From positions 1 to 18,612 of the IMG/VR virus record IMGVR_UViG_2645727905_000004: 18,612 bases of DNA, one strand, 5' to 3'. Under the pieces are notes generated by a model that was given only the letters and a program-made list of their open reading frames with translations, was not told the DNA's origin and made no database searches. Below are positions 99-17,177 of the stretch, in pieces. Every line of letters begins with the position of its first letter. The stretch's first letter is position 1. This stretch comes from a virus. Taxonomy: Duplodnaviria; Heunggongvirae; Uroviricota; Caudoviricetes. A program made the position numbers and the translations under genes.

Positions 99-743
99 CA
101 CACAGGTATCATGCTCAATAACAAAGTGCTACCTGTAACCATTTACAACATAGTACCATTCAATAAAACATTCTGGAATTTAATCAAAAACAGCCAGGAA
201 TGCCCTACAAATACAGATAACGTATTGAATGAATGCTTTAATAACCGTTGCACTCTGCAAATATGTCCTTATGGGCTAAAACAACAAAATCCATAAGGAG
301 TTTACTCACATCTGACAAAATCAATATAAACAGCCCCTCCGGAGAGGGGCTGGAGAGTGGCGCTATGTGCCATTGCATGGTGCCGGGTGCCTCCCGGTGA
401 ATTCAGTACCAGCACCTGAATCCGCGATTATCCCATATACCTACTCGCTGATTGCCCCTCCGCACAGGGGGATTCACCATGCCAGTTTCTTTTAACAAAC
501 TCCCCGCAAACCAGACAACAGTCAACCGCCTGAATTGTGAAGTATTTAAAAATTTCTCCCGCTAACTGATACCCGGCTAACAGTCTGGCGTTTTCTTTTT
601 CAGCAACGGGAAAGCAACAACCACCACACCCGCCACCAGCACACCGTCAGCCAGCACTGACATTATCCGGCTGCTGCAATGCCATTCACAAAAACAGTAA
701 GCAATCACTTTTTACCGTAACAGGTGATAATCCAGATATGTAT

Positions 744-1207: not shown

Positions 1208-1284
1208 TGGCGCGCTGTACTGGATTCGAACCAGTGACCGATTGCTTAGAAGGCAATTGCTCTGTCCGGCTGAGCTAACAACGC
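1208..1284 (-). tRNA. tRNA-Arg (anticodon UCU), phage-encoded
   Basis: Reverse complement GCGTTGTTAGCTCAGCCGGACAGAGCAATTGCCTTCTAAGCAATCGGTCACTGGTTCGAATCCAGTACAGCGCGCCA folds as a cloverleaf with anticodon loop CTTCTAA, T-arm GGTTCGAATCC and CCA end. Confidence 0.85.
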
Positions 1285-1385
1285 TGAATACCGATAATGG
1301 ACCGCCATCGGGGACCCGCCCCCCGCACCAACAACCCTGTTATCGTGTCGTCTGCTCTTCCTGATAAGCTAATGGCGGTTTGTGA

Positions 1386-1461
1386 TGGTGGCCCTTGCTG
1401 GATTTGAACCAGCGACCTGGCGATTATGAGTCGCTCGCTCTCACCACTGAGCTAAAGGGCC
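1386..1461 (-). tRNA. tRNA with CAU anticodon, ileX/ileZ-like (tRNA-Ile2 with lysidine; Met not excluded by anticodon alone)
   Basis: Reverse complement GGCCCTTTAGCTCAGTGGTGAGAGCGAGCGACTCATAATCGCCAGGTCGCTGGTTCAAATCCAGCAAGGGCCACCA; 76 nt cloverleaf, anticodon loop CTCATAA, closely resembles E. coli ileX as recalled; one A-C mismatch at the top of the anticodon stem. Confidence 0.8.
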
Positions 1462-4306: not shown

Positions 4307-4462
4307 TTACTCCTCAGGTTCGTAAGCTGTGAAGACAGCGACCTCCGTCTGGCCGGTTCGGATTCGTACCTCGCAGAGGTCTTTCCTCGTTACCAGTGCC
4401 GTCACTATGACGGTTAAACAGATGACGATCAGGGCGATTAACATCGCCTTTTGCTGCTTCAT
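4307..4462 (-). CDS. hokD: Hok-family type I toxin (HokD/RelF-type small membrane peptide)
   Basis: 51 aa MKQQKAMLIALIVICLTVIVTALVTRKDLCEVRIRTGQTEVAVFTAYEPEE, matching HokD as recalled; SD AAGGAG upstream; an in-frame upstream ATG at 4519 gives the 70-aa ORF in the track. Confidence 0.85.
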   Translation of the reverse strand: MKQQKAMLIALIVICLTVIVTALVTRKDLCEVRIRTGQTEVAVFTAYEPEE

Positions 4463-4753
4463 AGCCTGCTTCTCCTTGCCTTTCGGCACGTAAGAGGCTA
4501 ACCTACATTTGTGAGACATAGATTGGGCCTCAGATTAATGTTAAGCGTCGTGCAGGACGCGTAATGTTAACTGGGGCTTTTCTCTATCTGCCTTTTGGTG
4601 TTCATGCCTGAGACAGATAGCCTCAAGCACCCGCAGTCATTCTACTTAACTAAGATTTCCCCGCAAACCGTTTTTATCCCCAGCTGCAAATCGAATACAC
4701 AACAAGTGCTGCCGCCATTGCAATTCCTGTCGTTGTGAATGCCTCCGGCCAGG

Positions 4754-9784: not shown

Positions 9785-9821
9785 TACCCATGGGTATTTA
9801 CTTTTTAAATACCTATGGGTA
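9785..9821. promoter_or_regulatory. paired operators for the dicB-operon (early-left) promoter
   Basis: Perfect palindrome TACCCATGGGTA (9785-9796) and near-palindrome TACCTATGGGTA (9810-9821), same consensus as the sites at 9251-9286. Confidence 0.6.
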
Positions 9822-10563: not shown

Positions 10564-10971
10564 ATGGAATTTAAAGATTTACCAAAAGAAATCCAGACAA
10601 TTGCTGCAACGACTCTCGGTGATAGTCTGGTGAAAATTGACCCGGCATACACCAAAAAAGAAACCATCGATAATATGGTTCGTAATGTGCGCAATGCTTT
10701 TTCTGGGCTATATGGTTCTGATAATCAAAAGCAGGAAAGCGATGTTAATAAACGGGTAATTTCTGTTTGCGTGAATGGCCATGTTCTTTCATCAATCAAA
10801 ACAGAAACGGCGACAGTCTTCGATTGCCTTTGCATTGTACAGAGCCTTGTTGATGCCCTGTTTCGTTCAGTGAATTTAGAAAATGATGCAAATCTGCGAG
10901 GGCGCACAATAGCACATCCATATGCACATACTTTAGGCTCTGTGGATATCAAAGATCCCACAAATCTTTAA
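10564..10971 (+). CDS. hypothetical protein, inserted gene between ydfC and dicF
   Basis: 135 aa; GAGG SD 6 nt upstream; AT-richer than flanking operon genes; no family recognised; absent from the K-12 Qin arrangement as recalled. Confidence 0.55.
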   Translation: MEFKDLPKEIQTIAATTLGDSLVKIDPAYTKKETIDNMVRNVRNAFSGLYGSDNQKQESDVNKRVISVCVNGHVLSSIKTETATVFDCLCIVQSLVDALFRSVNLENDANLRGRTIAHPYAHTLGSVDIKDPTNL

Positions 10972-11182
10972 TGAAATAGTTAACGCGAATTGTACTTGCT
11001 CTTTCAGTTGCTTTCAGAATACGCGTTGAAACTGCTGGCGGTAATTTGGTATTCCATTTATTAAAATCATGCCCGGGAAAGTACTCTTCGAAAATACTTT
11101 TAACTGCAGACTCGCCTATTGAAATGCTGCTTACCATGCGATTTTGATAAAGGCATTTAGCAATAAGAGTTGATTTTAACAT
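10949..11182 (-). CDS. hypothetical small protein convergent with, and overlapping, the 135-aa ORF
   Basis: 77 aa; AGGAGG SD 4 nt upstream of the ATG at 11182; 3' end overlaps the 3' end of the plus-strand ORF by 23 bp. Confidence 0.45.
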   Translation of the reverse strand: MLKSTLIAKCLYQNRMVSSISIGESAVKSIFEEYFPGHDFNKWNTKLPPAVSTRILKATERASTIRVNYFIKDLWDL

Positions 11183-11505
11183 TCACCCTCCTGAGGGTTG
11201 GTAATTAAGGAGTTCTCCATGGGTGAAGTGGAGTGCGTGCGCCGGACACGGGTGAACATCCGGCACTGACAGTTTACTGAAAGGATATTTCTCTGAAAAG
11301 TCAGAGCATAACGCGAAAGCGCACGGCGAGGTTGCTGGTTCATAGATAGCCTGTCGTTAAATTTTCGTCGACCGTGCGCTTCCGGTTGTGGCACTCCGCG
11401 AAATGGCGCGGCGGTAAGTATGGCGGGGTTATTCCTTCCCCGTTGAGGACACCGGGTTGTCAGGTTGACCATACGCCTGAGTGACAACTCCGCTACAACA
11501 ACCCA

Positions 11506-11565
11506 TGTTGATTACCTTTTGGCGGGTATTCGTTTTGTTTTTCCCGTGATACCCGCCCCTTTTAA
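11506..11565 (+). ncRNA. dicF: DicF-like small RNA (variant) ending in an intrinsic terminator
   Basis: Sequence TTGATTACCTTTTGGCGGGTATTCGTTTTGTTTTTCCCGTGATACCCGCCCCTTTT resembles DicF as recalled (GGCGG..GTTTT..CCGTGA..CCGCCC + U-run); sits between ydfC and dicB as in Qin; boundaries approximate. Confidence 0.5.
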
Positions 11566-11740
11566 AGTGAATTTTGTGATGCGGTGAATGCGGCTCAGCG
11601 CACGCGGAACAGTTAAAACAAGCGGTCTTTTACTTGCGTAACAGACATCAACTAACAATCCGGCGTTAATGGTTTACTGGTTAACGTCACCTGGAGGCAC
11701 CAGGCGCCGCATCACAAAATTCATTGTTGAGGACGCGATA

Positions 11741-11929
11741 ATGGAAACGTTATTACCAAACGTTAATACGTCTGAAGGTTGTTTTGAAATTGGTGTCACT
11801 ATCAGTAACCCAGTATTTACTGAAGATGCCATTAACAAGAGAAAACAAGAACGGGAGCTATTAAATAAAATATGCATTGTTTCAATGCTGGCCCGTTTAC
11901 GCCTGATGCAAAAAGGATGCTGGCAATGA
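11741..11929 (+). CDS. dicB: cell division inhibitor DicB
   Basis: 62 aa METLLPNVNTSEGCFEIGVTISNPVFTEDAINKRKQERELLNKICIVSMLARLRLMQKGCWQ, near-identical to K-12 DicB as recalled; the longer track ORF starts upstream in frame. Confidence 0.85.
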   Translation: METLLPNVNTSEGCFEIGVTISNPVFTEDAINKRKQERELLNKICIVSMLARLRLMQKGCWQ

Positions 11930-16020: not shown

Positions 16021-16110
16021 TGGCGGAGAGAGGGGGATTTGAACCCCCGGTGGAGTTGCCCCCACTCCGGTTTTCGAGACCGGTCCGTTCAGCCGCTCCG
16101 GCATCTCTCC
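16021..16110 (-). tRNA. serU: tRNA-Ser (anticodon CGA), serU; prophage attachment site
   Basis: Reverse complement GGAGAGATGCCGGAGCGGCTGAACGGACCGGTCTCGAAAACCGGAGTGGGGGCAACTCCACCGGGGGTTCAAATCCCCCTCTCTCCGCCA, 90 nt with long variable arm. Confidence 0.9.
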
Positions 16111-17101: not shown

Positions 17102-17177
17102 TCCTCTGTAGTTCAGTCGGTAGAACGGCGGACTGTTAATCCGTATGTCACTGGTTCGAGTCCAGTCAGAGGAGCCA
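17102..17177 (+). tRNA. asnT: tRNA-Asn (anticodon GUU), host
   Basis: TCCTCTGTAGTTCAGTCGGTAGAACGGCGGACTGTTAATCCGTATGTCACTGGTTCGAGTCCAGTCAGAGGAGCCA; which asn paralogue it is follows from K-12 synteny with mtfA and serU. Confidence 0.9.

Follow-up and report, generated by a model that had tools for sequence, protein, structure and literature searches.

A conserved structured RNA domain on the 5' side of a DicF-family small RNA in a Qin-type Escherichia coli prophage

The window analysed here, that is, the whole stretch of 18,612 nucleotides (nt) in IMG/VR virus record IMGVR_UViG_2645727905_000004, is an Escherichia coli lambdoid prophage of the Qin/DicA type. Our subject is positions 11183-11505 of this window, which a preliminary description, made from the sequence alone, had presented as a GC-rich, highly structured non-coding stretch upstream of a DicF-like RNA. 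In the identical locus in RefSeq, the + strand carries, in this order, the genes for a repressor, ydfA, ydfB, ydfC and a 135-amino-acid (aa) protein; a 77-aa gene on the - strand and an unannotated gap of 560 nt follow, and then dicB, a DUF1482 (ydfD-like) gene, an exonuclease gene and, further on, an integrase-sized open reading frame (ORF). This is the layout that the dicBF operon has in the cryptic prophage Qin of E. coli K-12, in which the gap contains dicF. The region studied makes up the initial 320 nt of the gap and lies on the same strand as the ydfABC-type genes and dicF/dicB. In a three-way alignment (A1), the stretch between 11195 and about 11500 matched the K-12 ydfC-dicF spacer at approximately 95% identity, with nearly all of the columns invariant, and the identity to K-12 fell within the dicF part. 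Because the region is closely homologous to an RNA precursor that has been characterised, the locus is counted as already known from K-12; what is new is that 11380-11507 is a conserved folded domain that is annotated in no database.

In K-12, a 190-nt DicF species depends on ribonuclease III (RNase III) and a 53-nt species on RNase E; an internal promoter was not found, primer extension served to map the 5' end of the longer species, and that species builds up in stationary phase (PMC10448788; Ragunathan et al. 2023, citing Faubladier et al. 1990 for the 190-nt precursor). The region upstream of K-12 dicF has been described as a long untranslated region, and termination at the DicF terminator has been reported as a main route to DicF (PMC5069750; PMC9438474); a 72-nt DicF 3' end is produced by RNase III (PMC5069750). 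The transcriptome-wide RNase III papers contained no site-level data on dicF. The earlier suggestion of a processed small RNA (sRNA) precursor or leader upstream of dicF/dicB agrees well with this literature, as the region is the homologue of the K-12 spacer that RNase III and RNase E process (PMC10448788). It occupies the same operon position and, where the RNase III-dependent 5' end was mapped, has the same hairpin. It differs from K-12 Qin in that two additional genes lie between ydfC and the spacer, an ATG at 11219 is new in the window lineage, and the mature DicF part is a different variant. A promoter consensus scan of both strands of 11183-11505 revealed no promoter-like site, which is weak evidence but agrees with PMC10448788.

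BLAST searches against phage genomes revealed that the region is modular, with query bases 1-95, 114-202 or 203-321 common to different phages. The features on which the following analysis draws are listed below.

11195-11290, + strand: module A, a conserved section at the 5' side of the spacer (~95% identity to K-12 from 11195)
11219-11269, + strand: 16-codon ORF behind AAGGAG (11207-11212); translation confirmed, judged not a gene
11291-11306, + strand: small hairpin CUCUGA-AAAG-UCAGAG of module B; 2 of 4 counted pairs compensated
11308-11389, + strand: long imperfect hairpin of module B, ~20 base pairs (bp), arms 11308-11329 (5') and 11368-11389 (3')
11374-11384, + strand: predicted RNase III cut, nominally before 11379 (length and alignment transfer from K-12)
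11380-11507, + strand: module C, the conserved structured domain (covariation, alignment A4)
11385-11392 / 11492-11499, + strand: outer helix of module C
11396-11400 / 11407-11411, + strand: helix H1 of module C
11413-11415 / 11451-11453, + strand: GGU/ACC helix of module C, enclosing H2
11418-11423 / 11469-11474, + strand: candidate pseudoknot GUAUGG/CCAUAC of module C, with the H3 loop
11424-11428 / 11438-11442, + strand: helix H2 of module C, with a pyrimidine-rich loop
11454-11465 / 11475-11490, + strand: helix H3 of module C, a long hairpin
11500-11520, + strand: A/U-rich single-stranded linker, expected RNase E zone (unpaired in the fold of 11379-11562)
11508-11563, + strand: DicF-like sRNA variant with intrinsic terminator (inverted repeat and fold)
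11568-11723, + strand: dicF-dicB spacer, closed by a perfect 17-bp helix (11568-11584 / 11707-11723)
11741-11929, + strand: dicB, the next operon gene (RefSeq annotation of the identical locus)

Comparison of homologous sequences predicts that positions 11380-11507 form a four-helix RNA domain with a possible pseudoknot. The homologues were collected through an exact 14-mer scan of viral contigs, a two-part degenerate pattern with one genome per species, and annotated phage records, and most of them were ascertained via motifs inside module C. In the covariance-model alignment of 56 distinct sequences (A4), 97.0% of the cells at the proposed pairs were paired, compared with 33-53% when the partners were slid, and 14 pairs were compensated, compared with 1-4 in the slid controls, figures that are somewhat inflated by the fitting of this alignment to the model; an alignment produced by MAFFT only gave 94.8% paired cells and 11 compensated pairs. 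The observed values were reached by no shuffle, in controls that ignore phylogeny and with cell counts that are not independent events, many of the sequences being closely related prophages. G-U cells outnumbered A-C cells by 185 to 32, and the domain is therefore read as an RNA of the + strand. Helix H2 has been rebuilt with differing sequences in at least 10 lineages, H3 and the outer helix have been largely re-coded in Izhakiella and P1, and the unpaired positions are nearly invariant. The pseudoknot is a candidate only, because its support consists of one covarying pair and five near-invariant pairs.

No Rfam family accounted for the domain. A search of 11183-11505 against Rfam, at both gathering and permissive thresholds, returned only chance-level matches (E ~9), and Rfam 15 gave nothing at E <= 0.1 on the homologous stretch in the K-12, P1, cdtI and Erwinia loci. 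Thus the Rfam/Infernal scan that the preliminary description had proposed found no family on the region beyond chance level, and its phrase "unrecognised RNA element" holds for the last 128 nt, a domain supported by covariation and lacking an Rfam match. The fold was not found in the DicF literature covered (PMC10448788, PMC5069750, PMC9438474), and earlier drawings may exist (Faubladier 1990; the P1 genome paper). Our covariance model of the domain (R1) found a single copy in the window, and a search within the window for cis targets complementary to the domain yielded only scattered 9-mers. A 9-nt direct repeat, GTTGAGGAC, occurs just 3' of H2 (11442-11450) and again at 11726-11734, where it is the ribosome-binding region of dicB; pairing with GAGGA would be possible for the pyrimidine-rich H2 loop (UUCCUU).

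Of 5426 complete E. coli genomes, 4316 contained module C, with up to 8 copies and no feature annotated under it. It was also present in Shigella, Citrobacter, Trabulsiella, Erwinia tracheiphila, Izhakiella and Serratia symbiotica, as well as in cdtI-type and P1-like phages, and in a phage recorded as infecting Actinobacillus, which has DicA, Kil and exonuclease genes, the domain is located after the repressor gene. Four marine Gammaproteobacteria matches (L130, L132, L133, L143), apparently inside conserved coding sequence, were judged to be due to chance and were dropped. Among 80 viral loci ascertained through DicB, 72 carried the domain, approximately 235 nt upstream of dicB; in this sample, the domain was on average 94.9% identical to the window, dicB 97% and the dicF-dicB spacer 83%, and the DicF variant of the window was present in only 8-9 of the 80. 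In a biased sample, mean pairwise identity was 87% within the domain versus 65-66% in both flanks. Within 37-95 nt past the domain, 45 of 49 distinct downstream sequences had a hairpin followed by a T-run, and 3 more had longer hairpins that the test missed; only one copy, which is decayed, had no downstream terminator. These terminator hairpins belong to many unrelated sequence types.

The relatives in P1 and cdtI are informative with regard to context. The "dicF-like region" downstream of Pban in P1 (NC_005856) contains the same domain (model R1, 86.5 bits) and an intrinsic terminator, and the label in the record covers only the 3' half of the domain plus the terminator. Here, the domain lies in the Pban leader, upstream of tRNAs, tci and ban: it starts approximately 25 nt past the C1-controlled ban promoter, and the terminator ends 180 nt from the expected start, so a primary transcript of ~180 nt would be expected, which equals the processed unit of K-12 in size. 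In contrast to the window, the P1 domain stands at the 5' end of a primary transcript, without an upstream RNase III hairpin, and its outer helix and terminator sequences differ from ours. In phage cdtI, the domain lies approximately 280 nt past a near-consensus pL-like promoter, and the terminator is within 5 nt downstream.

Several further observations were made on these relatives. In cdtI-type, Citrobacter, Trabulsiella, Erwinia and Izhakiella loci (L006, L140, L141, L144, L146, L147), the outer helix is immediately preceded by a boxA-like sequence, UGCUCU(C/U)(A/U/C); the counterpart of this sequence in the window is GUGCGCUUCC (11374-11383), within the RNase III stem. In Erwinia, Izhakiella, Trabulsiella and Serratia (L146 4640-4740, L147, L144, L135), the terminator-like hairpin after the domain is long and encloses a Shine-Dalgarno-like sequence and an ATG (MFYR...), and more conserved sequence, including a ~20-bp inverted repeat in the cdtI type, was recorded past the T-run. 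Natural mosaics among viral contigs (L163, L164, L165, L175, L205, L190) have breakpoints that recur at module borders: L163 has precisely lost the interior of the domain and kept both outer-helix strands and DicF, and L164 has a DicF variant, a terminator and dicB without modules A-C. Several viral loci carry dicB without dicF.

The structures in the preliminary description were found again. The G+C content is 54.2% in the region, 47.8% in the window as a whole and 43-45% in the flanking 1 kb on either side, and the hairpins at 11241-11264, 11396-11411 and 11455-11491 were all located where they had been placed. The inner long-range pairing, GCGCACGG with CCGTGCGC, proved to be the core of the ~20-bp hairpin at 11308-11389 and extends to CGAAAGCGCACGG (11314-11326) with CCGTGCGCTTCCG (11372-11384). 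The outer pairing, GGAGTGC (11230-11236) with GCACTCC (11391-11397), exists as complementarity but decays without compensation: it is perfect in 13 of 39 unique homologues, the others retain 2-6 of the 7 pairs, and it overlaps a better-supported helix. We treat it as a chance or lineage-specific match. The comparison of homologues that had been proposed earlier therefore bore out 11380-11507, failed to support the outer pairing, and revealed no double changes in the long hairpin. The folding z-score of the whole region was -2.6 on the + strand and -2.9 on the - strand, and it contains 8 perfect inverted 7-mers compared with 3.0 expected from mononucleotide shuffles, a number that ~3% of the shuffles reach; by themselves, these fold and inverted-repeat numbers are unconvincing, and the comparative evidence is decisive.

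Module A contains the hairpins CUCCAU/GUGGAG (11215-11220 / 11228-11233) and GCCGGA/UCCGGC (11241-11246 / 11259-11264). It occurs as three sequence types that diverge 5' of GTGCGCCGGACA and have the rest in common, and the variants in its stems are restricted to wobble changes, no pair being doubly compensated. In module B, compensatory variants of the small hairpin include CCCUG/CAGGG, GCCUG/CAGGC and CUCUG/CAGAG. The long hairpin of this module is clearly non-random (folding z = -3.65) and has the conserved UGUCGUUAAAUUU in its apical part. Its 20 pairs were 98.1% paired in 24 homologues; 9 were invariant, 7 showed one-sided variation, and none had double changes. When 190 nt are counted back from the annotated 3' end of K-12 DicF, the nominal 5' end is L003:2246, which corresponds to window position 11379, with an uncertainty of ~5 nt, and falls in the 3' arm of the long hairpin, in double-stranded stem. 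Because of this placement, the long hairpin is, by analogy with K-12, the putative substrate from which RNase III generates the 5' terminus of the 190-nt DicF precursor. GGUUGU, AUAAC and ACAAC are overlapping strands that can act as alternative partners: GGUUGU (11385-11389) forms the base of the RNase III stem as well as the 5' strand in the outer helix of the domain.

On its 3' side, the domain is followed by the DicF-like variant, the terminator of which has a stem at 11521-11529 / 11549-11557 and a U tract at 11560-11563. DicF (RF00039) is the adjacent downstream element of the same transcript and ends in a terminator hairpin, but its Rfam model spans only the 52-53-nt RNA and matches neither 11183-11505 nor the variant of the window: over 10900-11800 there was no match even at E <= 10, whereas K-12 DicF scores 76.7 bits. 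The duplex energy with the ftsZ ribosome-binding region had a z-score of -0.23 in the window variant, and even authentic K-12 DicF reached only -1.43, which marks the test as one of low power. The same domain also precedes several other variants, whose terminator hairpins differ. HnrS, which was also considered, is a different, late-region sRNA. In the dicF-dicB spacer, the perfect 17-bp helix is likely to be a second RNase III site, 3' of DicF, that makes the 72-nt 3' end, because this end, which we place 19 nt beyond the 53-nt end, would lie in its 5' arm. The same spacer gave a weak STnc100 (RF02076) match at 11570-11718 (E = 1.7e-4). A weak STnc100-like match likewise occurs in K-12 and upstream of tciA in P1 (L004 2842-2961), and a full copy (132 bits) lies at 322-511 (-) in the late region of the window, downstream of phage tRNA genes; these copies suggest a recurrent structured phage leader element.

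Taken together, we consider it probable that 11183-11505 is a non-coding spacer of the Qin-type early-left (dicB) operon and the 5' part of a DicF-family sRNA precursor. The homology, helices, covariation and distribution are direct observations on the sequences, and the dependence on RNase III and RNase E, like the absence of an internal promoter, is carried over from the K-12 papers. The spacer would be transcribed on the + strand within a polycistronic RNA from a repressor-controlled promoter upstream of ydfA and would fold co-transcriptionally into three modules, with the long hairpin forming first and GGUUGU serving as the base of its 3' arm. RNase III would then cut the hairpin 11308-11389 at ~11379 and probably also the 17-bp helix 11568-11584 / 11707-11723. 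The two cuts, or termination at 11560-11563, would release a unit of ~190-210 nt comprising the domain and the DicF-like terminator hairpin. Once the upstream arm was gone, GGUUGUGGC could pair with GCUACAAC and close the domain; because GGUUGU is common to both stems, closure would be expected only after that arm had been cut away or displaced. RNase E would subsequently cut the A/U-rich linker (~11500-11520) and free the short sRNA. In this scheme, where the cut positions in the window, the refolding and the role of the domain are what we infer, the domain is most likely the folded 5' body of the long DicF species, which would fix the RNA ends, protect the RNA and position RNase E.

Some of our own results weigh against this scheme. 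The domain is better conserved than DicF itself, which a scaffold role explains poorly, and a passive scaffold explains equally poorly why the unpaired positions of the domain are near-invariant and why it is coupled to unrelated terminators, as it is in P1 and cdtI-type phages. DicF variants exist without the domain (L164) or with its interior deleted (L163). Module C alone is not thermodynamically unusual (z = -0.93), and its support therefore comes from covariation instead. The long hairpin shows no compensatory changes, and the cut positions in this prophage are transferred from K-12, with their ~5-nt uncertainty. The linker sequence differs from that of K-12, so that RNase E processing here is an assumption, and the DicF part of the window is a different variant, unrecognised by the Rfam DicF model.

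The processing scheme was weighed against explanations of other kinds. It is extremely improbable that the region codes, whether for a leader peptide or small protein of 16 codons or, on the - strand, through a 103-aa ORF that is a gene or a decayed gene. The preliminary description had reported the small ORF with its Shine-Dalgarno sequence; AAGGAG and MGEVECVRRTRVNIRH do exist, with 6 nt between AAGGAG and the ATG, but the ATG is at 11219 rather than 11218 and is not conserved. Among 28 unique homologues carrying AAGGAGTTCTCC, the start codon was ATG in 2 and ACG in 26, and the T at 11220 is a lineage-specific C-to-T change in the stem CUCCAC/GUGGAG, in which a U-G pair replaces C-G. The view that no credible long ORF covers the region also stands: the 103-aa ORF matched no protein family in Pfam or PHROG. 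Many close homologues keep its frame open for 92-110 codons, and a hypothetical protein is annotated at this position in some phage records, but in divergent homologues, indels of 1 and 7 nt shift or break it. Substitutions are compensatory within helices, and G-U pairs fall on the + strand, so we judge from the sequences that neither ORF is a gene. A riboswitch-like attenuator, in which a ligand-sensing domain would decide whether the terminator forms, is also very unlikely. A multi-helix junction, invariant unpaired bases, a possible pseudoknot and an intrinsic terminator within 37-95 nt are features that such an element would have; however, no alternative pairing was seen between the domain and the terminator arms, a metabolic gene context is absent, and the terminators vary among lineages while the domain is constant, and because they differ while the domain is unchanged, there is no co-varying anti-terminator.

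More serious, though still a minority view, is the idea that the domain is the regulatory RNA itself, either as a cis-element acting on polymerase or Rho in passing the terminator, or as the binding body of an RNA of ~180-190 nt. As an autonomous cis-acting transcription element, it would, while nascent, act upon RNA polymerase or block Rho and in this way carry transcription past the DicF terminator to dicB/kil, the recombination genes and int, in the manner of, but unrelated to, put of phage HK022. We find this rather doubtful. The contexts are suggestive, for the domain is always in a repressor-controlled early operon and upstream of a strong intrinsic terminator to be passed (Qin-type, cdtI, the P1 Pban leader and the phage with DicA, Kil and exonuclease genes), it is constant while the terminator hairpin sequences differ, and its unpaired positions are nearly invariant. 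The boxA-like UGCUCU(C/U) just 5' of it in the cdtI, Citrobacter, Erwinia and Trabulsiella types points the same way, as does the lack of an N-like arginine-rich protein: none was found among ydfA, ydfB, ydfC and the 135-aa protein, none of which has a Pfam match. Like put, the domain is a cis-encoded structured RNA between promoter and terminator in an early operon of a phage without an evident N protein. It nevertheless has no detectable sequence or structural similarity to put; model R1 had no match anywhere in the HK022 genome, the architecture is one of four helices and ~115 nt rather than two stem-loops of ~70 nt, and there is one copy per prophage, with none in the rightward operon, as opposed to two copies of put. 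In addition, termination at the K-12 DicF terminator is reported as a main route to DicF, L164 retains terminator and dicB without the domain, and a search for further operon terminators that would call for antitermination gave nothing convincing. The early-left leader of lambda, which contains nutL and the N-leader RNase III site, also has an RNase III-cut hairpin and in this respect resembles the window; a boxA-like motif is, however, found only in some relatives, and no boxB/N pair of the lambda type was found at the window locus. The alternative form of the idea, that the long species of ~180-190 nt is a conserved functional RNA whose domain binds a protein or a trans target, for example via the H2 loop, with the short DicF seed as a lineage-specific add-on at the 3' end, is possible but unlikely. 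It would fit the stronger conservation of the domain than of the DicF part, its presence in so many E. coli genomes and copies (4316 of 5426; <=8), the stand-alone unit of promoter, domain and terminator in P1, the two flanking RNase III helices that would excise exactly the domain plus the DicF unit, and the accumulation of the 190-nt species in stationary-phase K-12; by inspection, most of the ~12 distinct H2 loop variants contain a UCCU- or CUCC-like motif. Against this, no conserved complementary target was found in the window, the invariant stretches are mostly predicted to be paired internally, including in the pseudoknot, and no published phenotype distinguishes the long from the short form. 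The preferred reading of the domain as the 5' body of a processed precursor has a partial parallel elsewhere: Updegrove and colleagues are said to have described stem-loop-guided RNase E processing of sRNAs derived from 3' untranslated regions, such as MicL. There, likewise, RNase E trims a longer, structured precursor until a short sRNA with a terminator is left, but in the present case RNase III would act first, and the upstream structure is a multi-helix domain common to phages with differing 3' sRNA parts.

Some other features of the window were noted. The two genes inserted after ydfC relative to K-12 Qin are a phrog_1363 gene at 10564-10971 (+) and a phrog_10348 gene at 10949-11182 (-); they share 23 nt in a tail-to-tail overlap, and the - strand gene starts directly beside the structured region. 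A 16-bp palindrome (9785-9821) lies just past the repressor gene. The window also encodes a sok RNA of the hok/sok type (120 bits) and four tRNA genes, listed jointly as follows.

4457-4632 (-), 1211-1461 (-), 16024-16110 (-) and 17102-17174 (+): sok RNA and four tRNA genes

The region as first described is explained by the published biogenesis of DicF, and no new biology is required for it. The part that is potentially important is the 5' domain of the long DicF species, which is unannotated and is present in approximately 80% of complete E. coli genomes. It merits an RNA-family entry of its own, so that annotation stops calling ORFs over it. Among sRNAs, DicF is a textbook case, and behind its terminator lie dicB, kil and the recombination genes; a function for the domain, if one were found in processing control, read-through or trans activity, would change the view of how this operon is controlled and would also explain why the same element stands at the start of the ban operon of P1. 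If the domain were indeed regulatory, DicF, which has been studied for 35 years, would be the variable 3' tail of a larger and older phage RNA that is common to Qin-type, cdtI-type and P1 phages.

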